Shown: piece after piece, positions 11,281 through 27,833 of the stretch
Layout of the letters: each line of letters begins with the position of its first letter
How positions within the stretch are numbered: the first letter of the stretch is position 1
NCBI GenBank assembly: GCA_964510025.1
Contig: CAZDZV010000007.1
Location: 1 to 64,000 of the forward strand
DNA length: 64,000 nucleotides
Reading direction: 5' to 3'
Source: an uncultured Methanosarcinales archaeon
GTDB lineage: Archaea; Nanobdellota; Nanobdellia; Woesearchaeales; DATDXC01
Position numbers and translations under genes: made by a program
The notes under the pieces: generated by a model
Told to the model about the DNA's origin: nothing
Database searches by the model: none
The model's input: the letters and a program-made list of their open reading frames with translations, nothing else

Positions 11281-12525
11281 ATGTTCAGATACATAAAACA
11301 GCTCTTCAGGAAAAAAGAGCCTGAAAATATCGTTCTTAATCTAGATGAGCTGAGGCAGTTCTTCAATGAAAATGCTAAAAAGGTCAATGCTGAGCTTGAA
11401 AAAGAGCTTTCAGGGATAAAGCAGAAGATAGTCGCAGAGATGTACGACGCCAGGCAAAACCTTAAAAAATTGGCAGATGCAGAATTGAGGAACCCGAACA
11501 TATCGGTGCGGGAAAGGCAGTTCATGCAGGGCAACAGGGATGCTTACATAAAGATGACCGAGAACCTGCTGAAAAATATTGATATAGACAACATCAGCAA
11601 AGAAAAGTTCCAGGAGCAGCTGGAGCCATTTGCAAAATCAACCATGAAAGCCTACAGGATTCTGCAGAACTTTTTTGCGAACGAGACCAAAGATATAGCC
11701 ATTAATATAAAGAATCTGGAGCAGGCCGTAGACAGCCTGGAAAAAGCGGTAAAGCAGAAAGGGATACAGAAACTGAGAGAGCTTAGGGAGCTCATTTCGC
11801 AGGTTAAGAGAAAAAAAGAGCATATGCATAACCTTGCTTTGGAGCTGAAGGAGAAAAGGCAGGAAAAGGACCAGAGAGAGAAAGACAGGTCAAACCTGCG
11901 TGACATAATAGTGAACCTTAAGCAGAGCAATGAATATCAGGAATACCTTTCTTTATTATCACTGAAGAAAAAAGCTGAAAATGAGTACAATAGGCAGGAA
12001 AGCAGGATTATTCACATGTTCACCACAATCGATGCAGCTTTGAAGAAGTATTCTAGGATAACGCTGAAAGATGTTGTGCTTCTCGACGAGTATATCATAG
12101 ACCCGCTTAAGGCATTTCTAAAAGATGAGGATCTGAAGATTGCAGGACTTCTGGAAGGAACACGGAAGAACGTAATGAACGGCACGATAGCGCTGAAGGA
12201 CAGGAAAAGAGAGAAGACTCTGGAGCAGCTCAGAAAGATGGACCATGGATACCTGAAGTCTGAAAAACAGACTTATGTTGAGCTTTGCAAAACAATAAAA
12301 ATGCTTGGGGAAAGGATATCCAGGAACAATTCCAGGCAGAAGCTCGATGAGCTGAAGGAAAAAGAAGCCTATAATCAGGAAAAGCTTGAAAGTCTTATAA
12401 CAGGCATAGGCTATCTGCAGACAGAGATTGAAAAGATAGACTTCAGGAAGCCAGAGATAGAGCAACATATAGAGGATATATTTGACATCAAAGTTCAGTT
12501 GAAATTGCCCTTCAGAGCTTCATAG
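11281..12525 (+). CDS. Hypothetical coiled-coil protein
   Basis: Long K/E/L-rich ORF with host-like composition; start could alternatively be 11242. Confidence 0.7.
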   Translation: MFRYIKQLFRKKEPENIVLNLDELRQFFNENAKKVNAELEKELSGIKQKIVAEMYDARQNLKKLADAELRNPNISVRERQFMQGNRDAYIKMTENLLKNIDIDNISKEKFQEQLEPFAKSTMKAYRILQNFFANETKDIAINIKNLEQAVDSLEKAVKQKGIQKLRELRELISQVKRKKEHMHNLALELKEKRQEKDQREKDRSNLRDIIVNLKQSNEYQEYLSLLSLKKKAENEYNRQESRIIHMFTTIDAALKKYSRITLKDVVLLDEYIIDPLKAFLKDEDLKIAGLLEGTRKNVMNGTIALKDRKREKTLEQLRKMDHGYLKSEKQTYVELCKTIKMLGERISRNNSRQKLDELKEKEAYNQEKLESLITGIGYLQTEIEKIDFRKPEIEQHIEDIFDIKVQLKLPFRAS

Positions 12526-13718
12526 CTTGGAAGTGTTCCATTTGCCACAAGGTCAGATGAAGCGCCTCCGCCTGTGGAGCTTGGCACCTTTAGCCCGTAC
12601 CGGGAAAGCACCTCAAGCGTATCTCCTCCGCCAGCTATCTTCCTTGCACCTGATTCCGCAACCGCTAAGCCTACTCCTTGTGTGCCTGCCTGAAAATCCT
12701 CTACCTCAAATACGCCCATAGGTCCGTTCCAATAGATCGTTTTTGCAGAGAGTATCCTTTGCCTGTAATCAGCTACAGTGGTGGGGCCGATGTCAAGCCC
12801 TACCTCCCCTGGCTGCAGACCGTCACATGGCGCTGTCCTGGGTGTTTCATAATCGCCCGGCTTAAGCTGATTTGGTTTTACGCCTCCAGTTATTCTTGTG
12901 ACTATTATATCGCTTGGCAGTATCAGCCTGCCGCTACCTCTCTCAGTCCCATATTTTTCCAACAGATTTCTGCACTTCTCAACCATCCCGGGATTAAGCA
13001 GGGAATTGCCTATCTCATAGCCTAATGCCTTGTAGAAAGTGAAGACCATGCCGCCTCCTAGCAGCACAGCACTGTATTTCTGCAGAAACCTCTCTACATG
13101 CTCTATCTTATCTTCCACCTTTGCCCCTGCAAGTATAGCCAATGATCCTTGCCCAGGCCTGATAAAAGGCTTAAGCTGCTGAAGCTCCTTCTGCATAAGA
13201 AACCCTGCGTATGGCTGCCTGTATCTCATGATATCATAAGAAGAAGCATGCTCTCTGTGCGCCGCCCCAAACGCATCAAATACGACGATCCCGTCCTCAT
13301 CAACAAGATCGCATAGTTCCCTGGCAAAATCCTGGCGCTCTGCAGCCTGCTTGGATTTCTCCCTTGGATCGAACCTGACGTTCTCAAGCATTACAAACCC
13401 GGCTTCAGGTATGCCCTTCGTGTAGTCCGCCACAAACTCTACTGGCAGGCCCCATAGCTCCGAAGCCCTGGCTGCGACCGGCGCCAGGCTCATCTCCGGC
13501 ACTATCTTCCCTTTTGGCTTGCCAAGATGCGAAAGGACCACAACGCGCTTAGGGTTCTGTCTCTTGAAATAGTCTATTGTGCTCTGGACAGCCCTTATCC
13601 TGGAGTCATCGCCTATCACAACCATGCCGTCAATCTTCTTTAGAGGAACATTGAAATCAACCTTGAGAAGAACATCCCTTCCTCCAGTATCTGCTTTCTG
13701 TAATAGCTTGACTGCCAT
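12495..13718 (-). CDS. pgk: Phosphoglycerate kinase
   Basis: VDFNVP, SHLGKP, LENVRF, FGAAHR, WNGPMGVFE, GGGDT, STGGGA; ATG 13718 follows a GGTGG RBS. Confidence 0.93.
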   Translation of the reverse strand: MAVKLLQKADTGGRDVLLKVDFNVPLKKIDGMVVIGDDSRIRAVQSTIDYFKRQNPKRVVVLSHLGKPKGKIVPEMSLAPVAARASELWGLPVEFVADYTKGIPEAGFVMLENVRFDPREKSKQAAERQDFARELCDLVDEDGIVVFDAFGAAHREHASSYDIMRYRQPYAGFLMQKELQQLKPFIRPGQGSLAILAGAKVEDKIEHVERFLQKYSAVLLGGGMVFTFYKALGYEIGNSLLNPGMVEKCRNLLEKYGTERGSGRLILPSDIIVTRITGGVKPNQLKPGDYETPRTAPCDGLQPGEVGLDIGPTTVADYRQRILSAKTIYWNGPMGVFEVEDFQAGTQGVGLAVAESGARKIAGGGDTLEVLSRYGLKVPSSTGGGASSDLVANGTLPSYEALKGNFN

Positions 13719-13754
13719 TATTACCACCCAGAAAAATATTTAGCTATGGACTAT

Positions 13755-14867
13755 TTAAATTTTGTGAAATTTTTCCATAATCTTTCCGAAAGCATTTTTC
13801 CGGATCTCTACAGCATCGTGGGGGCATATCTCATGGCAGCAGTAGCACCTTATGCAGTCTTTCCTGACTATCGATGCTGCACCTGATTTCATCTTTATTG
13901 CCTTAGCCGGGCATATCCTCATGCATTCCCCACAGGCTTTGCATTTCCTGCTATTGATCCTGGGCTTGGCAGTCATAATCTCCCTCATGACTTTGGCCAG
14001 GTAGTTGGAAGAGACAAAAGTGACAGGCTGTTTTTCTGCCGGCTTGAATCTTAGCTTGAGGGCTTTATCTCCAACCTCATCGATATCCTCCAAAAACCTT
14101 TCACCCCTGGTCTGCAGGCCCTTTTTGTTCGTCAGGATACCCTTGACGCCCATTATCCGGCACAGCACAATATCCATGGCCAGGCTGTCATGAGATGCAG
14201 CGATGAGCCCTGAACTTATGGGTGTGCCATTGCCTGGTCCGTTGCCCTCCATGCCTACTACGCCATCCATCAGGTTGAGGTCCGGCTTGACAAAGTTGTT
14301 GATATCGACAAGCATAGACGCAAATTTTTCCCGGTCAGCAAGCTTAAGGTGCATCTGGCTTTTGTTGAGCCCTACCATGAACCCAAATGTGTTCTTGACA
14401 GCCAATGTCACCCCCATCATCACATGCGTTTTCATCTTTGGAGCGTTCACTATGTAATCAACACCATCGATAATATCGGCCAATTCCATTCTCTTCATGA
14501 GCAGCGCATCTTCATGGAGATAGGTTTTCTTTGATCGGAAGCCGACAAACTCAGCCCCTTCTTCTCTGCAGACATCCAGTATCCCGCATACCTTTGCAGT
14601 AGTATACGGATCATGAAATCCAGGGGAATCCCCCACAATTATCTCACATCCCTTACCCTTAAAAGTCCGGATGATTGCCCTTACAAACTCAGGATGTGTG
14701 GTAACGTGGAACCTGGGATGCCTTGGCCTAAGAAGGTTCGGCTTTATCAGCACCTTGGCCCCCTTACTGGCCTTAGGTCCGCCGATAAGCTTAATGCTTC
14801 TCTCAACAGCTTCAGATAACCTATCAGCGTCATAGCTTTCGCACCTGACCAGAGATACCTTTACCAT
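13755..14867 (-). CDS. DUF362 protein with C-terminal 2x[4Fe-4S] ferredoxin domain
   Basis: LIKPNL, TTHP, PKMKTH, MEGNGP; two CxxCxxCxxxCP motifs. Confidence 0.85.
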
Positions 14868-14936
14868 AACAAAATCTAATCAGCAGGCATATAATAATCT
14901 TTTGTTAGAAAAAATTATCCGTTCAGCTGCATTTGC

Positions 14937-16928
14937 CTATATAAACAGCGGAACAAACACCAAAGCAACAATGCTCATCAGCTTAATAAGGATGTTCAGT
15001 GAAGGGCCGGAGGTATCCTTAAATGGATCTCCTACTGTATCCCCCACAACCGCTGCCTTGTGTGCATCGGAGCCTTTTCCGCCGAAGTTCCCTTTCTCGA
15101 TATATTTCTTTGCATTATCCCAGCATCCTCCTGTGTTAGCCATCATTATTGCGAGCAGCACGCCGGTTACAAGAGAACCTGCCAACAGCCCTCCTAGGGC
15201 CTCAGCTCCCAGGAAATAGCCCACAGCAACAGGCACAATCACTGCCATCAAGCTCGGAACAATCATCTGCTTTAATGCTCCCTGTGTGGCTATGTCAACA
15301 CATCTTCTATGGTCAGGCTTTGCTTTCCCTTTCATCAGGCCTTTGATCTCCCTGAACTGCCTTCTCACTTCCTCTATCATGTAGTGGGCAGCCCTGCCAA
15401 CGGCCTTCAGTGTCATCGACGAGAAAAGGAATGTCAGCGCACCGCCGATAAAAAGCCCGATTATAACCATGGGATTCATGATGTCGATTGTCGTTATATT
15501 CGCAGATGTGGCATATGCTGAAAATAATGCCAGCGCAGTAAGTGCAGCAGAGCCTATAGCAAAGCCCTTGCCCATGGCAGCTGTTGTATTGCCCACAGAA
15601 TCAAGCGTGTCTGTTCTTTTTCTGACTGCCTTGGGCAGGCCGGACATCTCCGCGATGCCCCCTGCGTTGTCAGCGACAGGCCCGTAAGCGTCTACAGCAA
15701 GGCTTATCCCCAATGTGGAAAGCATCCCTATTGCAGATATAGCTATGCCGTAAAGTCCTGCAAAATAATATGCAACAAATATTGCGATGCAAATGGTGAT
15801 GATCGGAAGTGCTGTGCTTAGCATGCCGGTAGAAAGTCCTTCGATAATGTTGGTAGCTGCGCCGGTCAATGAACTTTCAGAAACTTTCTTTGTAGGCACG
15901 CAGTCAAATGAAGTGTAATACTCAGTCAGTATGCCTATTACCACGCCAGCTGCAAGTCCGGCCAGAGTCGCATAGAATATTCCCATGGACGAAAAGATGG
16001 CATTCCCTATGATAAAGTTTTCAGGCAGGCTGTATCTCACCAGAAGATAGACAAGGGGGATCAGCAGTACACTGGCGGTAATCAGGCCCCTGTTCAGGGC
16101 TGAATGCACCTTTTTCTCATCTTTGGTCCTCACAAAGAAGATGCTGATCAATGAGCAGATTATACCGATAGCTGCTATAAATAAGGGCAAAAGGGCAAAA
16201 CTTGCTGAGTTTTTTGTAATTGTCATGGCCAGCACCATAGTAGCCAGGATGCTGCCGACATAGCTTTCAAAAAGATCAGCCCCCATACCAGCCACGTCTC
16301 CCACATTATCTCCCACATTGTCAGCTATCACTGCCGGATTCCTCGGATCATCCTCAGGTATTCCTGCCTCGACCTTCCCAACAAGATCAGCCCCCACATC
16401 TGCAGCCTTTGTATAGATACCTCCTCCGACCCTTGCAAACAAAGCAACAGATGAAGCTCCGAATCCGAATCCTATTATCAAATTGGGGTCCCTGAAGATG
16501 GTGTACAGCACCGTAACGCCCAGAAGGCCGAAGCCAACAACCGAAAGGCCCATCACAGAGCCGCTGGAAAAAGCGATATGCAGTGCCTCAGCCAGCCCTT
16601 TCCTCGCTGCCTGGGTTGTCCTTACATTTGCTTTGGTGGCAACAAACATGCCTATATATCCTGCAAGTGTCGAAAAGATTGCTCCGAAGACAAATGACAC
16701 TGCAGTTATCCATGACAGGAACTGCCAGATAATGAAGAAAACTGCTACCACAAATACAGCTAGGATCTTATACTCCCTGAGAAGAAAGGTCATGGCTCCC
16801 TGGTGTATTGCTTCCGCAATCTCCCTCATCTTGGGCGTTCCAGTGCCAGCCTTTGTTATCTTCAGCATGAACATGAATGCTGAGATTATCGCTACAACAC
16901 TGATTAATATTATGAAAAGCGTATCCAT
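14937..16928 (-). CDS. hppA: Membrane-bound pyrophosphatase, K+-dependent, probably Na+-pumping
   Basis: [26 protein letters not shown] (Ala indicates K+-dependence), [16 protein letters not shown]. Confidence 0.93.
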
Positions 16929-16976
16929 TGTATCACCTGCTAAGCCTGCCCAAATGGCTGATATATAAGCTTTTGT

Positions 16977-17975
16977 CTACTTCATAATATATTTGGCCAG
17001 GTCAATCATCCTGTTGCTGTAGCCCCATTCATTGTCATACCAGCCCGTCACGACAAGCATCTCATTATCAACGACAGCAGTTAGTTTTGAATCAAATATG
17101 CAGGAGCTTGGGTTGCCGACAATATCTGTAGAAACTAAAGACTCCTCTGAATACTCGACTATCCCTTTCATGTGGTGTCTAGACACATTCCTGAAGAGCT
17201 CGTTTACCTCTTCAACAGGAACATCTTTCTTGTTTATCTCAGCCACAAAATTTACAAGGGATCCGTCCGGCACAGGTACCCTGATTGCAGAGGCTACAAG
17301 CCTGCCCTTAAGCTCCGGGATAACCTGCATGACAGCCTTTGCTGCTCCTGTGGATGTGGGCACTATGTTAAGTGCAGCTGCCTTCGCCCTCCTTAGGTCA
17401 GCGTGGGGCGCATCCTGCAGCTTCTGGTCTGCTGTGTATGCATGTACTGTGGTCATGACTCCTCCCTCTATAGAATAGTTATCATTGATGACCTTGGCCA
17501 TGGGGGCAAAACAGTTTGTCGTGCATGAGGCATTGGACACCAGCGCTTCCCCGTTATACTCATGCTCATTCACCCCCAGCACAATCGTCTTGACAGCCCC
17601 TCCTCCCTTCACAGGCGCTGACAAGACCACCTTCTTAGCTCCTGCATCTATGTGTTTCTGCATTCCCTCCTGTGTTCGGAAGAACCCAGTGGACTCCACT
17701 GCTATATCAATGTCAAGCTTTTTCCAAGGCAGCTTTGCCGGATTCTTCTCTGCAAAGACAGGTATCTCTTTTCCGTTGATGCTGATTGCCTTATCCTTGG
17801 CTGTCAGCTCCCCTCTGAAGGGCCCATGGACAGAATCATATCTCAGCAGATGGGCTAAAGTGCCGGGATCAGTAAGGTCATTTATGGCAACGAATTCTAT
17901 CTTGGGATCATCGATGCCCGCCCTTAGAACAAGCCTCCCTATTCTCCCGAAACCATTTATTGCGACCTTAACCAT
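16977..17975 (-). CDS. gap: Type I (bacterial-type) glyceraldehyde-3-phosphate dehydrogenase
   Basis: INGFGRIGR, SNASCTTNC, WYDNEWGYS. Confidence 0.96.
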   Translation of the reverse strand: MVKVAINGFGRIGRLVLRAGIDDPKIEFVAINDLTDPGTLAHLLRYDSVHGPFRGELTAKDKAISINGKEIPVFAEKNPAKLPWKKLDIDIAVESTGFFRTQEGMQKHIDAGAKKVVLSAPVKGGGAVKTIVLGVNEHEYNGEALVSNASCTTNCFAPMAKVINDNYSIEGGVMTTVHAYTADQKLQDAPHADLRRAKAAALNIVPTSTGAAKAVMQVIPELKGRLVASAIRVPVPDGSLVNFVAEINKKDVPVEEVNELFRNVSRHHMKGIVEYSEESLVSTDIVGNPSSCIFDSKLTAVVDNEMLVVTGWYDNEWGYSNRMIDLAKYIMK

Positions 17976-18029: not shown

Positions 18030-19733
18030 TTAGATATATTTTTTCTTGTAGTATTTTGTATGCAGAAGCTTATGCGCCTTCTCCGAGCCAGGCTTTCCGA
18101 GGTATCCCTTATAGAGGCTCAAAGCAGCAGGATTCTCATGTGATTTTCTTATCCTCTTTCCTTCATCCTCTGCTATCAGGGCCTTTGTCCTTTTCTTGAG
18201 CCTTACCTTGTTTGTAGGCAGCGGCTGCCCGCCGCCGCCGATGCAGCCCCCATAGCATGCCATTATCTCTATAAAATGGTAAGGGCTTCTGCCTTCCCTG
18301 ATCTGCTCCAGCAGCTTTCTTGCCTCTCCTAAGGTGTGCACCACCGCAACCCTGATACTCTCTTTGCCTATCTTAATCTCTGATTCCTTGAAAGTGTCCA
18401 TGTTCCGTATCTTCTTGTAGTCTATCTTCTTGATTTTCTTGCCTGCCAGCCAGTCAGCTGCCGTCCTCAGAGCAGCCTCCATGACGCCCCCGGTATGCCC
18501 GAATATGGCGGCAGCTCCTGTGCTCTCTCCCAAGGGATTGTCAAAATCAGAGTCCTTAAGGTTGACAAAGTCCACATTAAGCTGTTTCAGAAGCTTTCCG
18601 AGCTCCACGGTTGTCAGAACAAAATCAGCCTCGCCCTTGAACTCAGGCCTCAGGATCTCATACTTCTTTGCTGTGCAGGGCATTATGTCTACCAGTACAA
18701 TATCCTTGGGTTTTTTGCCTATCTTTTCAGCATAGTATGTCTTAACCAAAGATGCAAGTATTGCCTGGGGGCTTTTGCAGCTCGACATGTGGTTTAACTC
18801 CTTGAAAAAGAACTGTTCCCCGAACTTTATCCATGCAGGGCAGCATGTGGTTATCATCGGCAGATCCCTTTTCTCCTTCAGCCTTTTTATGAACTCAGTA
18901 GCTTCCTCCATTATGCAGATATCCGCGCCAAGATCAGTATCAAATACCTTGTCAAATCCTATCAGCCTGAGCGCACTTACCATCTTTCCTGTAACTGGTG
19001 TTCCGGCAGGCATGCCAAAACACTCCCCTAGTGTGGCCCTTATGGACGGTGCTGTCTGGGCAATCAGTATCTTGTCAGAATTAAGGGCATCTATCACCCC
19101 CTGGATATCGCTTTTCTCTGTAAGCGCTCCTGTCGGGCAGGCGATGACGCATTGGCCGCAGTTGATGCAGGCGCTTTCATTGATTGACAGGTTAAAGGGC
19201 GGAGCCACCTTTGCGCTGAAGCCTCTGTTTTGAAGGCCTATGGCATACACTGTCTGGATATCGTTGCAGATGCGTATGCACTGTTCGCAGAGTATACACT
19301 TATTATTGTCCCGTCGGATGGAGACGCTTGAATTGTCCACCTTCTCCTCCCGTTTTTCACCTTCGAACCTTATCTCCTGCACCATAAGCTCCTCGGCGTA
19401 CCGCTGTAATTTGCATCTCAGGTTCTCGGGGCAGGTAACGCAGTTAAGGTCATGATTTGCCAGAAGCAGCTCAAGGTTTATTCTCCTTGCTTCCATGACC
19501 TTGGGTGAATGCGTATTGACCTCTGCCCCTTCCTTTATGGGCGTGCAGCAGGAAGCCACAAGCTTCCCTCCTATCTCCACTATGCAGAGCCTGCATGCTC
19601 CAATCCTCTCCAACCTCTCATTGTAGCAGAAATGAGGTATGTCAATCCCTGCTTTTTTTGCTACATCCAGTATCATCTCTCCTGGCTTTCCTTCCACATC
19701 AATGCCGTTTATCTTGAACTTGACCTTTTTCAT
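18030..19733 (-). CDS. hydA: [FeFe]-hydrogenase catalytic subunit 1 (group A3-type)
   Basis: H-cluster motifs TTCCPAW, MPCTAKKYE, EIMACYGGCIGGGGQP; N-terminal 2Fe-2S, His-ligated 4Fe-4S and 2x4Fe-4S motifs. Confidence 0.93.
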   Translation of the reverse strand: MKKVKFKINGIDVEGKPGEMILDVAKKAGIDIPHFCYNERLERIGACRLCIVEIGGKLVASCCTPIKEGAEVNTHSPKVMEARRINLELLLANHDLNCVTCPENLRCKLQRYAEELMVQEIRFEGEKREEKVDNSSVSIRRDNNKCILCEQCIRICNDIQTVYAIGLQNRGFSAKVAPPFNLSINESACINCGQCVIACPTGALTEKSDIQGVIDALNSDKILIAQTAPSIRATLGECFGMPAGTPVTGKMVSALRLIGFDKVFDTDLGADICIMEEATEFIKRLKEKRDLPMITTCCPAWIKFGEQFFFKELNHMSSCKSPQAILASLVKTYYAEKIGKKPKDIVLVDIMPCTAKKYEILRPEFKGEADFVLTTVELGKLLKQLNVDFVNLKDSDFDNPLGESTGAAAIFGHTGGVMEAALRTAADWLAGKKIKKIDYKKIRNMDTFKESEIKIGKESIRVAVVHTLGEARKLLEQIREGRSPYHFIEIMACYGGCIGGGGQPLPTNKVRLKKRTKALIAEDEGKRIRKSHENPAALSLYKGYLGKPGSEKAHKLLHTKYYKKKYI

Positions 19734-21463
19734 TTTTTGATTATTGCATCAAACGCGCATACCTCATGGCATTTTCCGCATTTTATGCATTTTTCCTGGT
19801 CTATGCTGTGCCGTTGCTTCAGCTCACCTGATATAGCCTCAACAGGGCAGTGCCTGGCGCAGTTACCGCATCCGGTGCAGTTTTCAGTTATATGGTAATG
19901 AAGGAGGCTGGTACAGGATCCTGCTGGACAGCTTTTTTCATTAAGATGCGCCTTATATTCATCCTCAAAGAACTGAAGAGTGGACAAAACAGGGTTGGGA
20001 GCGTTTTGTCCCAGGCCGCATAGTGAATTCTCCTTGACAAACTCAGCCAGCATCCTGATTTTTCCTATTATGGCTGAATCCCCCACCCCCCTTGTTACAT
20101 TTGTAAGCATCTCAAGAAGCCTTTTTGTCCCTTCCCTGCAGGGTGTGCATTTCCCGCAGCTCTCCTGTTGTGTAAATGCCATGAAATATTTGGCTACATC
20201 GACCATGCATGACTTGTCATTTATCACTATCAGACCGCCAGAACCCATGATAGCTCCGAGTTCCTGCAAAGGTTCATAATCAAGGGGCGTATCAAGCTTA
20301 TTCTCAGGGATGCATCCTCCTGCAGGGCCTCCTGACAATAATGCCTTCAGCTTGGTGCCTTTAGGTGTTCCTCCGCCTATATCGTAGACGATCTCATTGA
20401 GTTTAGTGCCTACAGGCACCTCTATTATACCTGCCCTGTTGATCTTTCCTGCCAGGCATATCACCTTGGTCCCTTTGGTCTTTTCAGAGCCGATTTTTGC
20501 ATAATTCTCAGCGCCGATCTTCATTATGGATGCTGCATGCGCCCATGTACCCACATTATTTACATTTGTGGGTTTTCCGTACAGGCCCTTTTCTGCAGGA
20601 TATGGGGGCCTGGGCCGGGGCATGCCCCTCCTGCCTTCTACAGAATTTATCAGGGCAGTCTCCTCACCACATACAAATGCACCTGCCCCTTTCTGGATAC
20701 GGATATTGAAGCCAAAGCCCTTTCCAAGGATATTATCTCCAAGAAGATTATTCTCCAGAGCTGTCTTCAGTGCCTTTTCCAGGGTTTCGATGGCCAGAGG
20801 GTATTCCGCCCGGGTGTAGATTATGCCTTCGTCAGATCCGGTTGCGTATGCGCCTATGGTCATCCCCTCGATAAGCTTGAAAGGATCTGACTCCATTATT
20901 GTGCGATTCATGAACGCTCCTGGATCACCTTCATCGCCGTTGCAGATAAGGTATTTCTTCCCTTTTTTGCCTGCAATAAATTTCCACTTCAGCCAGGTCG
21001 GAAAGCCTGCTCCTCCCCTGCCCCTTAGCCCTGATTTCCTGATCTCCTCTATAACCTGCTCTGGCTCCATCCTCATTGCTTTCTTGAGCCCGCTGTAGCC
21101 CCCCGCCTCAAGGTACTGGCCAAGCTCCAGAGGATTTATGGTTCCGCAGTTTTCCATAACCAGCCTTTTTTGCTTTTTGTAGAAATCAATCTCGTTTATG
21201 TCATGAGCGACCAGGTTCGGGTGCTCTTTCCACTCCTTGATGCATACTATGAGCTCTTCCACATTGTCTTCTGTTATGCTTCCGTAGATAGACCTGACAT
21301 CATTCCTTACAAGAGTGACTATCGGCTCATTATAGCACATGCCTATGCAGCCCACCTTCTCTACAGGGATGCCTAGATTGGCTTTCTTGAGCCTTTCAAA
21401 TACAGGAAGCCCTCCGGCTGATATCCCGCAGGTAGCAAGTCCCACTGTGATCTTGTTATTCAT
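19730..21463 (-). CDS. hydB: NuoF-like FMN/NADH-binding hydrogenase subunit, full-length
   Basis: GLRGRGGAGFP, DEGDPGAFM, GAGAFVCGEE, ESCGKCTPCREG; N-terminal thioredoxin-like and C-terminal 2x4Fe-4S domains. Confidence 0.92.
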   Translation of the reverse strand: MNNKITVGLATCGISAGGLPVFERLKKANLGIPVEKVGCIGMCYNEPIVTLVRNDVRSIYGSITEDNVEELIVCIKEWKEHPNLVAHDINEIDFYKKQKRLVMENCGTINPLELGQYLEAGGYSGLKKAMRMEPEQVIEEIRKSGLRGRGGAGFPTWLKWKFIAGKKGKKYLICNGDEGDPGAFMNRTIMESDPFKLIEGMTIGAYATGSDEGIIYTRAEYPLAIETLEKALKTALENNLLGDNILGKGFGFNIRIQKGAGAFVCGEETALINSVEGRRGMPRPRPPYPAEKGLYGKPTNVNNVGTWAHAASIMKIGAENYAKIGSEKTKGTKVICLAGKINRAGIIEVPVGTKLNEIVYDIGGGTPKGTKLKALLSGGPAGGCIPENKLDTPLDYEPLQELGAIMGSGGLIVINDKSCMVDVAKYFMAFTQQESCGKCTPCREGTKRLLEMLTNVTRGVGDSAIIGKIRMLAEFVKENSLCGLGQNAPNPVLSTLQFFEDEYKAHLNEKSCPAGSCTSLLHYHITENCTGCGNCARHCPVEAISGELKQRHSIDQEKCIKCGKCHEVCAFDAIIKK

Positions 21464-22053
21464 TTTAGTGCTTCTATTATTTTCTTGACCTTTGTCTTGT
21501 CCAGCTCCCCATAGACCTCATCGTTTATCATCATAGCTGGGGCTTTTGCGCAGGCGCCGATGCAGTTGACACATTCCAGGGTGAATTTACCGTCTTCGGT
21601 TGTCTCCCCTGTCTTTATGCCGATGATCTCCTCCAGATACTGTAGCAGCTTATCAGAGCCCTTGACATGGCATGCTGTGCCCCTGCACACTGAAATAATG
21701 TATTTACCTGATTTTTTGAGCTTGAACTGGGAATAGAATGTCGCTACACCATAGATATTCACGCCCGGTATATTCTTTTCCTTTGAGACCCTTATCATCT
21801 CCTCATTAGTTAGATATCCGTTCTTTTTTTGCAGTTCCTGCAGTATGGCCACAACATTAGGCCTTGCTTTCATTTTTTTGGCAGGCTGCCTCTTTGCATG
21901 AAACTCACGTTTCATCCTTTCCAGCTCATCTTTGCTGGGCTTCTCCTTTCCTATGTACCTGCTGAGTTTCTTGTACTTATCGCCTTCCCTCACAGTGTGG
22001 AATAGATAATAGTATTTGTTGCCTTTGATAGTGACCTGCTTAAGATAGGGCAT
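21460..22053 (-). CDS. hydC: NuoE-like 2Fe-2S hydrogenase subunit with a ~60-aa basic N-terminal extension
   Basis: GVATFYSQF, CRGTAC, CIGAC-APAM; extension KGNKYYYLFHTVREGDKYKKLSRYIG. Confidence 0.9.
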   Translation of the reverse strand: MPYLKQVTIKGNKYYYLFHTVREGDKYKKLSRYIGKEKPSKDELERMKREFHAKRQPAKKMKARPNVVAILQELQKKNGYLTNEEMIRVSKEKNIPGVNIYGVATFYSQFKLKKSGKYIISVCRGTACHVKGSDKLLQYLEEIIGIKTGETTEDGKFTLECVNCIGACAKAPAMMINDEVYGELDKTKVKKIIEALK

Positions 22054-22062
22054 AGCATAATT

Positions 22063-22172
22063 TAACTACCACTAGTATAAAAACCTTCCTATTTTTTTAT
22101 TAATTACCACAACAGTCCCATTGGCATTTAACTACCACATCTGGGTATGGCTGTCTAGTCTCTAATTACCAC
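22063..22172. promoter_or_regulatory. Four direct repeats TAAYTACCAC (22063, 22101, 22129, 22163) around the hydC1 promoter; putative operator
   Basis: 10-mers read directly; minus-strand TATA at 22076-22083; box 1 lies between the TATA and the start codon. Confidence 0.7.
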
Positions 22173-22215
22173 AAAAAAGCAAAAATAGATAAAGAAGCCA
22201 TGCAATAAGCAGCCT

Positions 22216-22572
22216 ATGGCAAAGGTTGCTGACATTTTAAGGCATACTGCAAGAACACTCTTGCTGGTATTTGGGATTTTGATATTTATTTTTGCCCTTG
22301 TCTCAGGAGCTGCGACTTTTGGACCTGGCATCAAAGGAGTTGTCTTGAACAGCCCTAACGCGCTGCCTTGGCTGATCCTGCTTATCTTGGTCTATGTAGC
22401 ATGGAATAATGAGCTTGTCGGCGGCATTTTAATAGCGCTGCTGGGTATACTCACTGTCTTCTTTTTTAACACACTGAAACATGCGGCTGTTTTTTTCATC
22501 ATCTCTCTGCCGTTGGTTGTCCTGGGGGGCTTCTTTGTACTAAGCTGGTATCTTAGAAATCATCGGAACTGA
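22216..22572 (+). CDS. Small membrane protein, about 4 TM helices
   Basis: Four hydrophobic stretches; occupies the gap between the two hydrogenase clusters. Confidence 0.75.
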   Translation: MAKVADILRHTARTLLLVFGILIFIFALVSGAATFGPGIKGVVLNSPNALPWLILLILVYVAWNNELVGGILIALLGILTVFFFNTLKHAAVFFIISLPLVVLGGFFVLSWYLRNHRN

Positions 22573-24251
22573 GTTCTTTTTACATATCTTGTATGCAGAA
22601 GGCTGTGCGCCTTTTCAGAGCCAGGCTTTCCCAGAAAATCATCATAAAGCTGGACTATCTCAGGGTTCTTGTGTGATTTCCTTAGCTGCAGCTGGCTGTC
22701 CTGGTTGTACAGTGCAGAAGCCCTTTTCTCTATTACTGCAGAATTTGTTGGGACAGGCTGTCCCCCTCCGCCGACACAGCCGCCTGGGCAGGCCATTATT
22801 TCTATGAAATGGTATCTTGAAGTATCTTTCTCTACAAGCTCCAGAAGCTTTCTCGCATTGCCCAGCCCATGGGCTACTGCAATGTTGAGGTCCATGCCGG
22901 CTATGTGGACTGTTGCTTCCTTTATCCCCTTTAAGCCCCTGACACCATGGTATTCAACTTCTCCCAGCTCCTTTCCTTCAAGCTTGTCAGCAGCTGTCCT
23001 CAGCGCTGCTTCCATGACGCCTCCTGTTGCCCCGAATATGGCTGCTGCTCCTGAAGAGCTGCCCATGACAGGATCAAAGAACTCATCAGGCAGCTGCTCG
23101 AATTCTATTCCTTTCTCCCTTATCATCCTGCCCAGTTCCCTGGTGGTAAGTACAAAGTCCACGTCCTGGAATCCAGAGCTTTTCATCTCTGGCCTTGACA
23201 TCTCAAACTTCTTTGCTGTGCAGGGCATGATGCTTACAGACACTATCCTGGCAGGATCGATCCTATTTTTGTCAGCATAATATGTTTTCAGCAAAGCTCC
23301 GAACATCTGCTGGGGGCTCTTGCAGCTGCTCACATGAGGCAGCAGTTTGGGAAAGAAATGTTCTATGAACTTTATCCATCCAGGACTGCATGAGGTGATC
23401 ATTGGCAGGACTCCCTTGTCCTTGATCCTCTCTATTAGCTCGTTGCTCTCCTCTACAATCGTCAGGTCAGCGGAGAAATCTGTATCAAGCACCCTGTCGA
23501 AGCCGATTTTTCTCAGAGCAGCTACCATCTTTCCAGTGACCAGGCTGCCTGGAGACATGCCCTGGGTCTCTCCCAATGTTCCCCTTATAGAAGGCGCTGT
23601 CTGCACGATGACAGTCTTATTCTCGTCATTGATGGCCTCCCAGACCTGCTGGGTGTAATCCTTCTCAACAATAGCTCCAGAAGGGCATACATTTGTGCAT
23701 TGCCCGCACTGTACGCATGCCACCTCTCCCAGGCCGTATCCGTAATAAGGCATCACTTCTGTGTAATGGCCCCTATTTTCAAAACCGATAGCGTATACTG
23801 ACTGGATATCCTGGCATTTCTGCACACACCTTCCGCATAAGATGCATTTGTTGTTATCTCTGTATATTGCCCGGCTTGTGTCGTCTGTCTTTTTGTCATA
23901 CAGCCTTTCGAACCTGCTCTTTTCCACACCGAGCTTTTTTGCCAGCTTCGCAAGCTCATTGTCCTCCCCTTTTGGATTATGGTTTGCCAGCAGCAGCTCG
24001 ATATTTAGTTTTCTTGCTTTGGTGAGCTCTTCATTATCAGTTGTAACGCTCATACCGTCAGAGATCTTTGTGTTGCAGCTTGTCACTATCCTGCCGTTGG
24101 CCTCTACTACGCAGATCCTGCATCTTGCCTGCTTTTCAAGATCAGGATGATAGCAGAGATGCGGCACTTCTATGCTGTTCTCGATACAGACTTCAAGTAT
24201 TGTCTGTCCTGGCTCTGCTTCATATTCTTTGTTGTTTATGACTATCTTCAT
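22560..24251 (-). CDS. hydA: [FeFe]-hydrogenase catalytic subunit 2 (group A3-type)
   Basis: TSCSPGW, MPCTAKKFE, EIMACPGGCVGGGGQP; lacks the three Cys of the His-ligated cluster. Confidence 0.93.
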   Translation of the reverse strand: MKIVINNKEYEAEPGQTILEVCIENSIEVPHLCYHPDLEKQARCRICVVEANGRIVTSCNTKISDGMSVTTDNEELTKARKLNIELLLANHNPKGEDNELAKLAKKLGVEKSRFERLYDKKTDDTSRAIYRDNNKCILCGRCVQKCQDIQSVYAIGFENRGHYTEVMPYYGYGLGEVACVQCGQCTNVCPSGAIVEKDYTQQVWEAINDENKTVIVQTAPSIRGTLGETQGMSPGSLVTGKMVAALRKIGFDRVLDTDFSADLTIVEESNELIERIKDKGVLPMITSCSPGWIKFIEHFFPKLLPHVSSCKSPQQMFGALLKTYYADKNRIDPARIVSVSIMPCTAKKFEMSRPEMKSSGFQDVDFVLTTRELGRMIREKGIEFEQLPDEFFDPVMGSSSGAAAIFGATGGVMEAALRTAADKLEGKELGEVEYHGVRGLKGIKEATVHIAGMDLNIAVAHGLGNARKLLELVEKDTSRYHFIEIMACPGGCVGGGGQPVPTNSAVIEKRASALYNQDSQLQLRKSHKNPEIVQLYDDFLGKPGSEKAHSLLHTRYVKRTQFR

Positions 24252-25348
24252 ATGAATTCATCCCGAAAATATTCCAGGGCTGTCTTGATGTGGTTATTTG
24301 AAGCCTGGCCCAGCCCGCATAATGATGTCTTGTTTATGAAGTTGGCAAGGTCCTCTAAGGCCGAGATATCTTCCTGGCCTGTCTTTTTTTCAACGATCCT
24401 GTTCAGTATCTGCAGTGCCCTGAAATTGCCCTCCCTGCACGGGGTGCATTTGCCGCAGCTTTCATGCACAAAGAACTCTGCAATATTCCTGCATATCTTG
24501 GGCATTGGAACGGATTTTCCTACTGCTATTACAGTGCAGCTTCCGAGCATCGCCCCGTATTCCTTGATGCTGTCCACATCTAATATAAGGTCTGGCGAAT
24601 AAGGCACACAGCCGCCGGCACACCCGAAAAAAAGCGCCTTTATCTCCTCCCTGGGCTCAGCCTGCTCCACAAGCTCTTTTGCCAGGATGCCTAGAGGCAT
24701 TTCGTATACCCCTGGCTTGTTTACAGAGCCAGACACTGAAAAGAGCCTTTTGTTCTGCCACTGCCCGGCCAAAATCAGGGGAACATTTGTAAGGGTCTCG
24801 ACATTATTTATTGACGTAGGGCAGCTGCATAGTCCGCTTTCCACAGGATAAGGCGGCTTGGGGCTTGGCTCCCCTCTTTGCTCCTCTATCGAATTCATAA
24901 TTGCGGTCTCATCCCCGCAGATGTATGCTCCTGCCCCCATTACGATTTCTATCCTCAGTCCTATCCTGTCAAGCTCCTTGGCATATTTTTTTATGGATTT
25001 TTCCAGGCTTTTCCTGAGATACCCGTATTCAGCCCTTAGATATATATAAGCAAGCTTAGCAGCTGTTGCATAGCCTGCGATTGCAATGCCTTCGATAAGT
25101 GTTTCAGGGTTGTGCTCCAGAATGAACTTGTCCTTGAATGTTCCCGGCTCACCTTCATCAGCGTTGCAGATGAGTATTTTCCGGGACTCTGCGCAGCTTC
25201 TTGTACATTCCCATTTCAGCCCTGTCAGGAAGTTGGCTCCCCCTCTTCCCCTTAGCCCTGCTTTCTTGACAATCTCTATTACCTGTTCAGGCTGGAGGCT
25301 TAACGCCTTTTTGAAAGCTTGCAGGTTTATCTTCTGTGTTATTTGCAT
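24248..25348 (-). CDS. hydB: Minimal NuoF-like FMN/NADH-binding hydrogenase subunit
   Basis: GLRGRGGA, ADEGEPGTFKD, GAGAYICGDE, ESCGKCTPCREG; no extra FeS domains. Confidence 0.88.
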   Translation of the reverse strand: MQITQKINLQAFKKALSLQPEQVIEIVKKAGLRGRGGANFLTGLKWECTRSCAESRKILICNADEGEPGTFKDKFILEHNPETLIEGIAIAGYATAAKLAYIYLRAEYGYLRKSLEKSIKKYAKELDRIGLRIEIVMGAGAYICGDETAIMNSIEEQRGEPSPKPPYPVESGLCSCPTSINNVETLTNVPLILAGQWQNKRLFSVSGSVNKPGVYEMPLGILAKELVEQAEPREEIKALFFGCAGGCVPYSPDLILDVDSIKEYGAMLGSCTVIAVGKSVPMPKICRNIAEFFVHESCGKCTPCREGNFRALQILNRIVEKKTGQEDISALEDLANFINKTSLCGLGQASNNHIKTALEYFRDEFI

Positions 25349-25779
25349 TTCTTTATTATCTCCCTGATCCTGATTTCATCAAGTTTAGTATAAGCCTTGC
25401 CATCTATCAGGCAGGCAGGCGCCTCGTCGCAGCATCCTATGCATGAGGTCTGTTTAAGCGTGAACTTGCCGTCCTTGGTTGTCTCGTTTATCCCTATGCC
25501 AAGCAGCTCCTGGAATATGTTCTGGATATTTTCAGAGCCGTTTATCAGGCACGCGGGCGAATTGCATAGCCTTATGATATGCTTTCCTTTTTTCTTTACA
25601 TCAAAGAATGAATAGAATGTAGCTACCTCATATATCTTTGTCAGGGGTATTCCTGACTTCAGTGACAGCTTCTTTAGATTCTCCTCTGACAAAAACCCCT
25701 CTTTTTTTTGTATCTGCCTTAGTTTTGATAACAGCAGCTCACTTGACTTGGTGTCAAGTATCTTGCGTCCTCTCTGCAT
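25339..25779 (-). CDS. hydC: NuoE-like 2Fe-2S hydrogenase subunit
   Basis: EVATFYSFF, CNSPAC, CIGCCDEAP. Confidence 0.88.
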   Translation of the reverse strand: MQRGRKILDTKSSELLLSKLRQIQKKEGFLSEENLKKLSLKSGIPLTKIYEVATFYSFFDVKKKGKHIIRLCNSPACLINGSENIQNIFQELLGIGINETTKDGKFTLKQTSCIGCCDEAPACLIDGKAYTKLDEIRIREIIKKCK

Positions 25780-25855
25780 TTATTTTTAATCTCCACCAAT
25801 TCCTATTTAATATTTTCTATTTTATAGGAATATTTAAATATCCGCTGCAAGATAA

Positions 25856-26179
25856 ATGAATGTGATGGAGATGATTACCAATATAGGCAAGCTCTTCCTT
25901 TTTCTGATACTTCTGATGAATCTTGTGTTTTTTTCTGTGCAGGAATTCCGTAAGAGGAGAAAGATGATACTGCTGGTCGTATTCCTTTTCCTGCTGTCTG
26001 TTGGGGCCCTGTTTAGCTTCCTGGCAGACCTTTCTGAGCTGAGGATGATAGAGCTTCTTTGGCATGTTATGGGCATTGGCTTTGTTGGGATAACTGCCAT
26101 GCTGATATCTGTCAGCGCAAACAAGAGGATGCAAAAGGTGATGAGGCATGGGATCAAGCTGGTTCATCGTAGGCATTGA
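25856..26179 (+). CDS. Small membrane protein, about 3 TM
   Basis: Hydrophobic segments; TATA upstream at 25831-25840. Confidence 0.6.
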   Translation: MNVMEMITNIGKLFLFLILLMNLVFFSVQEFRKRRKMILLVVFLFLLSVGALFSFLADLSELRMIELLWHVMGIGFVGITAMLISVSANKRMQKVMRHGIKLVHRRH

Positions 26180-26420
26180 TATCATAGGGATCATAGGATT
26201 CCTGGCTGGTTTCTATTTTTCCAGGAAAAACGATTACCTGACAAAATTCGCTTCAGCTGTGTGGTGGGTTTTTTCAATACTCTGCATCATCGGCATAATA
26301 TGGGTGATCTTCCTTATGCTTGACCTGGAGAGCATATCACTCGTATTTTACAGCTTCTTTGTGGGCTTCCTGACATGCTTTCTTTTTGTCTCCTATAAAG
26401 AGAAGATCAAGCTTTTCTAG
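26148..26420 (+). CDS. Small membrane protein, about 3 TM
   Basis: Hydrophobic segments; GGTGA/GAGG RBS; 32-nt overlap with the preceding ORF. Confidence 0.6.
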   Translation: MGSSWFIVGIDIIGIIGFLAGFYFSRKNDYLTKFASAVWWVFSILCIIGIIWVIFLMLDLESISLVFYSFFVGFLTCFLFVSYKEKIKLF

Positions 26421-26428
26421 GTGATTAA

Positions 26429-26971
26429 GTGGCAGATGTTTATGAAAAGCTGAAAAAGATAAAGTTTGATTCGTTGGTGGTATGCACTACAGAGGAGATC
26501 CTGTACTTCCGCAGGTGCATCGAGCTGATTGAGGTCTTGGTGAGGGAGCGTGGTATGGCAGGCATCCTGATAACGATGAACATCCCGATAGAGCATTTCA
26601 GCCGTGAGTTGTCTGGCCTTGATACCGGAGATATTTGGTTTGTGGACTGCATATCTGCAATATCTGGCACCATTCAGCCTGAGATATCTAACTGCATAAC
26701 AGTGAGCCACCCCATAAATGAGGGAGGCATAATGGTCGCTGTTGCCACAGCTTCCAGAAGATTAAGGGGCAGGCACAAGTTTGTGATGCTGGTATCACCC
26801 CATGTCCTGAATGAGTATTGGGACATAAACAAGATGGGGCTTTTCCTCTACCAATATAAGACATTTCTGGCTGAGAATAGCCTCCTGAATATCATAATGC
26901 TGAAGAAGGAGAAAAACAAGCTTTTTGAAGCCATGGTAGAGAGGCTGGCTGACTATCTGCTGGTCAGCTGA
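26429..26971 (+). CDS. Degenerate KaiC/RecA-like domain protein without Walker A
   Basis: GILITMNIP ... IWFVDCIS ... VERLADYLL pattern typical of inactivated archaeal KaiC-like domains. Confidence 0.55.
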   Translation: MADVYEKLKKIKFDSLVVCTTEEILYFRRCIELIEVLVRERGMAGILITMNIPIEHFSRELSGLDTGDIWFVDCISAISGTIQPEISNCITVSHPINEGGIMVAVATASRRLRGRHKFVMLVSPHVLNEYWDINKMGLFLYQYKTFLAENSLLNIIMLKKEKNKLFEAMVERLADYLLVS

Positions 26972-27009
26972 CAGAAAATTATATAAAGAACTTGCCCCAC
27001 ATTCATCTT

Positions 27010-27261
27010 ATGGTGCACAAAATAATCGGTCTGCAGCTTAAGGAAAGGCAAAAGCTTGCAGCAAAGGTGCAATCCCTCTTAAGCGAATACGGGTGCATTA
27101 TTAAGACAAGGGTCGGGCTTCACGATGTCCATAAGGAAAAGTGCTCAGAAACTGGGATAATCTTGCTGGAGATGCACGGGCCAGACCGGGATATCCATGA
27201 ATTTGAGAAAGATATCAGGGACATTGACGGAGTAACAGTGAAAGAGATGGTTTTTGATTAA
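27010..27261 (+). CDS. Small ACT/NikR-C-like protein related to iron-only hydrogenase system regulators
   Basis: KVQSLLSEYGCIIKTRVGLH ... CS-GIILLE ... GVTVKEMVF. Confidence 0.7.
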   Translation: MVHKIIGLQLKERQKLAAKVQSLLSEYGCIIKTRVGLHDVHKEKCSETGIILLEMHGPDRDIHEFEKDIRDIDGVTVKEMVFD

Positions 27262-27299
27262 GGATAAATTATATAAATGCTGAAAAAGGGTGATTGAAT

Positions 27300-27833
27300 A
27301 TGGAATATCTAAACAAGCAGGATTATAGGCTCAGCTACAATGCGGAGATTTTCGAGATAGCGCTGTACACAGTGGCTGCTTTCTTTCTGCCGCTCATGGT
27401 TGGCCACCCTCAGATAGTTGTGGGTGTGCTGGTCAACTCATTGCTGATTGTCTCAGCTTTGAATGTCAGGGGAATCAGGCTTCTGTCTGTCATCATAGCG
27501 CCTACATTAGGCGCCCTGTCCCGGGGCATTCTGTTCGGGCCTTTTACGATTTTTTTGGTGTACATGATCCCTTTTATCTGGGTGGGAAACGCGATCCTGG
27601 TGTATGCCTTTAAGAGACTGCATCTGGGCGCCAAGCTCAACAGGTGGATAACGCTGTTTATAGGGTCTGCTGTGAAGGCAGCATTTCTTTTTGCAGTAGC
27701 CTTTGCATTTGTGCAGCTTGGCATTTTGCCGAAGCTGTTCCTGGCAACAATGGGCATCTTCCAGTTCTACACCGCAATCCTTGGGGGAGTGTTGGCTCTT
27801 GGATTCCAGGCTGTAAAGAAAAAAGCTGCATAG
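27300..27833 (+). CDS. ECF S-component-like membrane protein
   Basis: HPQIVVGVLVN, PFIWVGNAIL, QFYTAILGG; about 5-6 TM; GGTGA RBS. Confidence 0.6.
   Translation: MEYLNKQDYRLSYNAEIFEIALYTVAAFFLPLMVGHPQIVVGVLVNSLLIVSALNVRGIRLLSVIIAPTLGALSRGILFGPFTIFLVYMIPFIWVGNAILVYAFKRLHLGAKLNRWITLFIGSAVKAAFLFAVAFAFVQLGILPKLFLATMGIFQFYTAILGGVLALGFQAVKKKAA

Follow-up and report, generated by a model that had tools for sequence, protein, structure and literature searches.

Introduction

Among enzymes that double as regulators, BirA, NadR and PutA use helix-turn-helix (HTH) or ribbon-helix-helix domains. These three and RbkR are trigger enzymes, in which a metabolic enzyme carries a DNA-binding domain whose sites lie near the enzyme's own promoter or related ones (PMC5397151). 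Autoregulation by the archaeal RbkR, a winged-HTH protein serving one pathway and responding to a metabolite signal, has been suggested in 36 genomes (PMC5397151). In Yersinia pseudotuberculosis, the Fic protein CccR carries a fused C-terminal DNA-binding domain, by means of which it represses its own promoter (PMC9755527). In control regions bound by the stand-alone regulators Ss-LrpB and TrmBL1, several palindromic-type sites lie two to three turns apart, with sites 3' of the TATA box repressing and upstream sites activating (PMC2995911, PMC4706686). Here we describe hydC1, a hydrogenase gene in a 64,000-nucleotide window from an uncultured Woesearchaeales archaeon (contig CAZDZV010000007.1, positions 1 to 64,000), whose product begins with a small putative DNA-binding domain, hereafter the head, and whose promoter region carries four copies of a 10-bp box.

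Like the trigger enzymes, HydC1 joins a metabolic enzyme to a (putative) DNA-binding domain with conserved cognate sites at its promoter. Its head, however, is a beta-sheet domain for which no metabolite signal has been shown, and head, promoter and boxes travel together from one enzyme to another of unrelated kind, whereas each trigger enzyme is tied to one pathway and a metabolite signal. Unlike the C-terminal domain of CccR, the head in these DPANN archaea is N-terminal and has also been transferred to non-Fic enzymes. The hydC1 array is spaced like those of Ss-LrpB and TrmBL1, but HydC1 is an enzyme subunit. By analogy, the head-HydC1 fusion may act in the manner of trigger enzymes or of self-repressing Fic proteins, as a candidate member of either class. 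The comparative evidence below suggests that the head, promoter and boxes probably form a portable self-repression cassette, which would limit hydC1-hydB1-hydA1 expression by protein amount or assembly state.

Group A3 HydABC hydrogenases have been reported in Woesearchaeales by Greening et al. 2024 (PMC11216029). The term 'DNA-binding' is absent from the main text of that paper, the supplements of which may list these HydC proteins, and the available parts of PMC8407392 contain nothing on a HydC with head and boxes. In the literature searched, which excluded most subscription journals, we found no account of the head, of the boxes or of a HydC that binds DNA; as far as that literature goes, the head is likely an undescribed domain family.

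Results

Four boxes surround the hydC1 promoter

The window (G000:C7:1-64000) belongs to a 1.70-Mb genome that is 97.7% complete. The features of the locus are as follows.

21460-22053, minus strand: hydC1, an open reading frame of 197 amino acids (aa), NuoE/HydC subunit
21889-22053, minus: N-terminal head of HydC1, residues 1-55, putative sequence-specific DNA-binding domain, FHTxR subtype
21460-21882, minus: HydC/NuoE thioredoxin-like [2Fe-2S] domain, residues 58-197 (Pfam PF01257, Foldseek)
22163-22172, minus: box 4 (GTGGTAATTA), the putative operator site farthest from hydC1
22129-22138, minus: box 3 (GTGGTAGTTA), exact motif match
22101-22110, minus: box 2 (GTGGTAATTA), 8 nt 5' of the element resembling a B recognition element (BRE)
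22084-22092, minus: BRE-like purine-rich element, fitting the A-rich profile 5' of TATA in the genome's 379 promoters
22076-22083, minus: TATA box TTTTTATA, 30 nt ahead of the ATG
22063-22072, minus: box 1 (GTGGTAGTTA), 3 nt after the TATA box and 9 nt ahead of the ATG, predicted repressor site
19730-21463, minus: hydB1, NuoF-like diaphorase subunit, 577 aa; its start overlaps the hydC1 stop
18030-19733, minus: hydA1, [FeFe]-hydrogenase catalytic subunit, 567 aa, with all three H-cluster motifs present
25339-25779, minus: hydC2, headless and boxless paralog, 146 aa, opening hydC2-B2-A2; internal control
22216-22572, plus: divergent DUF7670 membrane protein gene, sharing the intergenic region with hydC1

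Within the 162-bp intergenic region 5' of hydC1, the order is box 4, box 3, box 2, the BRE-like run, TTTTTATA, 3 nt, box 1, 9 nt and the ATG. The box reads GTGGTARTTA on the coding strand and TAAYTACCAC on the forward strand. A first-pass annotation of this DNA had reported four copies here, the first between TATA and ATG, and we confirmed them: exact copies start at 22063, 22101, 22129 and 22163 and are the four in the window, compared to a mean of 0.10 in 100 dinucleotide shuffles of it, none of which held as many as four. The genome holds eight exact copies, made up of the hydC1 four and four scattered singles. The boxes are covered by contigs of three public DNA runs from one study with no differences listed; one of these runs may be the window's own source.

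The start codon lies 30-31 nt past the first TATA base in 212 of the 379 TATA promoters of the genome. This modal distance suggests leaderless transcripts, and because such spacing implies a leaderless start, box 1 is likely to lie in untranscribed DNA, at approximately -19 to -10. The full box is present in one of the 379 promoters, that of hydC1, which rules out the objection that it is a generic promoter element. There was no sign of a wider regulon, with box pairs (at most one mismatch, within 70 bp) occurring in the genome only at hydC1 and as one inverted pair on contig C14.

Box arrays accompany the head rather than the hydrogenase

A full-length head-HydC fusion occurs in 17 of 401 genomes of the order, a set that includes the unpublished G135, G208, G210, G212, G247, G316 and G374, none of which is among the fusions or box matches or supports a sequence claim made here. 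Of the 17, seven (from five families) are of the FHT[VT]R subtype. Each of the seven has a box array that places one box between TATA and ATG, whereas the remaining ten lack an array. No exact box was found within ~1.5 kb of unfused HydC at 33 loci (one locus counted twice). The expected co-occurrence of boxes and fusion was thus borne out, as was the proposed repressor-type position of box 1, which recurs in relatives; a box 5' of the BRE also recurs in orthologues. A phylum-level search added two further fusions only, both boxless.

When the search was run from the DNA side, a three-box pattern was found at 64 loci in genome contigs and at least 112 in metagenome contigs, and 176 loci were taken. 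The first gene 3' of the array carries an FHTxR-type head in 40 of the 176 (25 genome and 15 metagenome loci, some duplicated across the two collections). Ten of these genes encode HydC and 30 are of the phenylalanyl-tRNA synthetase alpha (PheS) type, identified through PF01409 (E 8e-82 for L070) or, for several truncated genes, assigned by similarity. The remaining 136 loci comprise 109 plain tandem repeats and include one in which a PheS fusion is the second gene after the array (L087) and one cut by a contig end (L199). A two-box scan of the 401 genomes gave 11 matches, namely six HydC fusions, four PheS fusions and one without a nearby head gene (G125), while its reversed control gave four single matches. 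Three to eight boxes are present in 39 of 40 non-redundant FHTxR-subtype loci, and the last box ends 9 nt ahead of the ATG in 19 of 39 homologous loci.

Three of these loci had unusual layouts. At L087:966-5582, two arrays stand in tandem, one ahead of a 408-aa gene and the other ahead of a 426-aa ATPase gene, with the PheS fusion 3' of the ATPase; this looks like genes inserted between a cassette promoter and its head gene. At L160:288-2991, a 333-aa dehydrogenase-like gene lies between a boxed head-HydC gene and the HydB gene 3' of it, so that another flavoenzyme complex may also be under cassette control. Six near-identical box-containing repeats of 29-30 nt lie near a recombinase-like gene on a Woesearchaeota contig (L062:4001-4158), with no head gene in the locus; they are possibly iterons of an integrated element.

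The arrangement of the boxes could also be read as an activator or a two-phase switch, with upstream boxes activating at low concentration and box 1 repressing at high concentration, as for Ss-LrpB. Three of the four hydC1 boxes lie upstream, box 2 is close to the BRE-like element, and 80 of 136 box intervals measure 28-31 nt, or about three helical turns. A site just 5' of the BRE marks activation by Ptr2, LysM and Ss-LrpB, and the sign of Ss-LrpB control depends on its concentration (PMC2995911). Across subtypes, however, the box just 3' of TATA is the most constant element, while the upstream copy lies at varying distances and, depending on subtype, is direct or inverted. Some subtypes have both boxes 3' of TATA (L021, L025, L265), and the head has no evident activation surface and works on many unrelated partners. 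We consider an activating role distinctly unlikely.

Another explanation is that the boxes belong to some other trans-acting factor, or are half-sites of a genome-wide palindrome, TAAYTACY-N4-RGTARTTA, with the head as a passenger. The palindrome, scanned with up to two mismatches, occurs 5' of many promoters (23 sites, compared to 5 in the reversed control), its half-site has eight bases in common with the box, and a near-perfect inverted pair of 9/10 boxes precedes a C14 gene. However, none of the four hydC1 boxes appeared in the palindrome scans, the full box marks a single TATA promoter, and in most of 60 relatives, among them G004, which has boxes, the palindrome is no more frequent than its control (29 versus 27 in G004). 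Boxes also change with head subtype and vanish along with it, and we judge the passenger explanation very improbable. The palindrome itself lies ~45-60 nt 5' of many start codons, just 5' of the BRE (e.g. C14:11864, C4:1816, C4:71146, C1:195138, C12:47151), is also enriched in G025, G050, G008, G046 and G016, and may be the site of a global regulator.

Related heads pair with other boxes on other enzymes

The head profile matched 508 places in 239 of the 401 genomes (150 of the 508 listed), and 677 representatives in a 50%-identity library passed a cutoff of E 0.001. Source names of the homologues indicate Woesearchaeota/Nanoarchaeota. The likeness to DPANN Fic proteins noted in the first-pass annotation proved to be a real conserved domain common to both. 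The family pattern, Y-x-Y-L ... R ... Y-x-G-x-x-x-P at the extreme N-terminus together with a subtype-specific repeat beside TATA, is present in HydC1. Other head partners include PAS histidine kinases, nucleotidyltransferases, NAD kinase, phosphoenolpyruvate (PEP)-utilising enzymes and an asparagine-synthase domain. Seven PAS-containing histidine kinases that start with a head (P0168, P0178, P0182, P0190, P0208, P0235, P0255) appear to be unusual kinases with a putative N-terminal DNA reader.

Loci examined included 113 fetched regions; duplicates, loci with short upstream sequence and three without a callable repeat were removed. A repeat of at least 9/10 with one copy near the start was present in 109 of 144 protein-selected head loci compared to 12 of 150 control promoters. 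Other subtypes, as on Fic proteins and glycyl-tRNA synthetase (GlyRS), have other boxes at the equivalent promoter position, and the copies are direct in some subtypes and inverted in others. The TKN subtype pairs with GTGCCCATA, EHT with GTGACGTAT, EHS with GTAGGGGTAA, QHS with GTAATGGTA, V[KH]S with GTGGTGACTA, [AG]HS with GTAGTGTATA and the GlyRS head with GTAGTACCTA. The GlyRS of the window's own genome (C12:8717-10387, minus strand, L374) starts with a head of a different subtype, and a GTAGTGCCTA box directly follows its TATA; the GlyRS pairing of head and box recurs in relatives. Promoter, boxes and head appear to behave as a portable cassette. It is commonest on Fic genes and has also been grafted onto HydC, PheS and GlyRS, among others.

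This distribution bears on the suggestion that HydC1 senses redox state. In that reading, HydC1 is a redox-sensing trigger enzyme in which the [2Fe-2S] cluster or the NADH/ferredoxin state of HydABC switches box binding, as flavin redox does in PutA. The four cluster ligands (C123, C128, C164, C168) are invariant in 91 fusions, fusion length is held tightly at ~197-202 aa, and the head is present on two separate NuoE clades. However, the same head subtype (mean sheet identity of 68%) and the same box occur on PheS, which has no redox centre, and related heads occur on Fic proteins, GlyRS, histidine kinases, nucleotidyltransferases, NAD kinase and PEP-utilising enzymes. The head lacks cysteine and is followed by a short low-confidence linker (predicted local distance difference test, pLDDT, 61; predicted template modelling score, pTM, 0.60), which suggests independent domains. 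Redox sensing is possible yet unneeded because the same head and box serve PheS; with boxes lost in 12 of 23 HydC fusions with DNA, it found no direct support, and we think it unlikely.

The head sheet and the boxes are conserved together

In box-bearing HydC fusions (n=11, four of which were discovered via their boxes), pairwise identity is 76% in the sheet (residues 1-36) compared to 57% in the NuoE domain, with the sheet higher in 52 of 55 pairs. In boxless fusions (n=12), the values are 42% and 56%, and the sheet is higher in 6 of 66 pairs. The FHTxR signature is present in all 11 boxed and none of the 12 boxless fusions. From these alignments, the head sheet appears to decay where boxes are lost. 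The fusions at L036-L045, L375 and L376 retain a head but no GTGGTARTTA box, and their sheets are decaying.

Heads occur on two NuoE clades whose enzyme domains are 42% identical and whose sheets are 74% identical, which suggests cassette transfer or strong constraint. The NuoE tree is a quick tree, and a tree of the heads alone, built on 56 columns, has too little strength to name a donor or to order the events; neither tree settles the direction.

Among 80 Fic loci, box similarity correlated with sheet similarity at 0.40 when the Fic domain was controlled, and with the Fic domain at 0.04 when the sheet was controlled, the pairs being non-independent. The most informative head positions (3, 5, 18, 29 and 31) fall on one inferred sheet face together with the conserved Y14, Y16, R22 and Y33. 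Box-linked information is 0.19 bits on that face compared to 0.09 on the other (p 0.02), an indirect measure that is confounded by kinship.

Nearest-neighbour prediction at the Fic loci was a tie (5.98 versus 5.88 of 8; random 3.14), and because of this tie, kinship accounts for much of the correlation between box and sheet. Among the HydC fusions, the boxless L045 keeps a nearly intact head, an exception to sheet decay.

HydC1 is an ordinary HydC apart from the head

PF01257 (NuoE-type 2Fe-2S) spans residues 58-197 of HydC1 only (E 1e-50), and HydC2 aligns with residues 62-197 only, at 42% identity. The extension of ~60 aa described in the first-pass annotation is indeed absent from HydC2, but the head itself is ~55 residues, consisting of three strands plus a helix, followed by the linker. 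Structural matches are limited to the NuoE part, which Foldseek aligned with HydC chains at E 7e-15 to 1e-14 (PDB 8a6t, 7q4v, 7p5h). HydC1 has the thioredoxin-like [2Fe-2S] domain of a group A3 HydC, with HydB (NuoF-like) and an H-cluster HydA encoded alongside, as in electron-bifurcating HydABC. To judge from sequence, it is an ordinary group A3 [FeFe]-hydrogenase HydC apart from the head, with predicted bifurcating activity. Two HydC fusions, P0051 (L039) and P0108, have long, very basic Lys/Arg/Ser-rich C-terminal tails like histone H1-like tails.

Two AlphaFold runs predicted strands at residues 3-9, 12-23 and 26-35 and a helix at 41-53/55; Y14, G35 and P39 are invariant in the head. No significant match to the head was found in Pfam, NCBIfam, PHROGs, PDB sequences or Foldseek PDB; these blank searches leave the novelty of the fold unproven. 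In the ESM Atlas, the best match (0.86) was to unnamed clusters, and a DUF6788 cluster (0.77) is a lead only. The predicted head has the layout of AP2 and integrase arm-type domains, with three antiparallel strands and then a helix. The structural match was middling only (PDB 3jtz, HPI integrase arm domain; 6sy0, PfSIP2 AP2), with 6% sequence identity and no significant profile match. Arm-DNA-bind_5 was touched by one of 46 heads (E 0.032) and not by that of HydC1. The head has tyrosines where AP2 has its Arg/Trp pattern (AP2 binding mode as in PMC5104403), and it is fused to archaeal enzymes. The head is no more than a candidate member of the AP2/integrase family.

Beta-sheet domains of the head type do occur in integrases, and the head and boxes could be an inert mobile-element relic, a transposon end with a transposase N-terminus; alternatively, the boxes could be ribosome-binding or RNA elements. 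GTGGT resembles Shine-Dalgarno-like sequences before pgk and other genes, and the last box of one PheS group stops 2-3 nt short of the ATG. However, a likeness to IS1634-type transposases claimed in the first-pass annotation was unconfirmed, with no transposase among 120 listed homologues, 40 Pfam-scanned proteins or NCBIfam hits, and no profile-profile comparison with an IS1634 alignment was made. A tblastn search with the head gave no plasmid match and one weak phage match (E 0.2), and sheet constraint exceeds that of the enzyme domain while boxes persist. Most boxes lie 5' of TATA and would not be transcribed, and other subtypes have inverted copies and boxes unlike ribosome-binding sites. 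A relic or RNA element is the least probable of the explanations considered.

Surroundings of the hydC1 operon

The genes hydC1, hydB1 and hydA1 overlap stop-to-start. Directly 3' of hydA1 on the same strand (12495-17975) lie genes that we take, from sequence motifs, to be gap, a proton-pumping pyrophosphatase gene (hppA), a DUF362-like Fe-S protein gene and pgk. Since gap is preceded by its own TATA-like element, as is hppA, hydA1 is likely the final gene of the operon. Co-transcription of gap and pgk with the operon is unlikely given these elements and a neighbourhood that is unconserved in the 14 loci examined. The DUF7670 gene was not seen beside the other box-bearing orthologues examined.

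With hydC2-B2-A2, the window holds two complete hydC-B-A operons in tandem (region 18030-27833), with a long HydB1 and a short HydB2 and with TTCCPAW versus TSCSPGW motifs in HydA. Nearby are genes for a putative hydrogenase regulator resembling TM1266 (26992-27261) and for a conserved membrane protein (27294-27833).

Discussion

The comparisons establish the fusion, the array, the strict cis linkage of the two, their occurrence on enzymes of unrelated kinds and a sheet that is conserved in step with the boxes. Box binding, repression and avidity are what we infer. Residues 1-55 of HydC1 are predicted to bind the four GTGGTARTTA boxes around the gene's own promoter. One sheet face would read the 10-bp box as a monomer, to judge from the fold type and covariation; monomeric recognition is suggested because copies are direct and inverted and their spacing is variable. 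HydABC, PheRS, GlyRS and many Fic proteins are oligomers, and an oligomeric enzyme presenting several heads would gain avidity from boxes 2-4. Because the host-enzyme oligomer would supply this avidity, the loop would be sensitive to protein amount and assembly. A head on box 1, between TATA and the putative leaderless start, would block recruitment of RNA polymerase, as TrmBL1 does from a site just 3' of TATA (PMC4706686). The hydC1-B1-A1 operon would be repressed by its own HydC1, giving negative feedback on enzyme amount and probably also on assembly state.

The proposal that HydC1 is an autoregulator therefore has strong comparative support, although as one case of a portable cassette that is not hydrogenase-specific. 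More tentatively, and with considerable doubt, the cassette could be a general DPANN device for transferable self-regulation on hydrogenases, tRNA synthetases, kinases and Fic proteins, built around a beta-sheet DNA reader with a recognition code of its own. Through HydC, an electron-bifurcating [FeFe]-hydrogenase would then be its own transcription factor, with box occupancy set by complex assembly or by [2Fe-2S] redox.

Gene control in reduced-genome DPANN archaea is almost unstudied, and the pairing of head and box offers a concrete, testable mechanism. The boxless fusions with decaying heads are a built-in record of the loss of self-control. The head family, in which 55-residue domains come with their 10-bp sites, is also a natural library from which a beta-sheet recognition code might be learned and small orthogonal repressors drawn. 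If the proposed mechanism is true, a tiny DNA reader fused to an enzyme limits that enzyme's own promoter, and a hydrogenase subunit, in an arrangement for which we found no earlier description, regulates its own operon.

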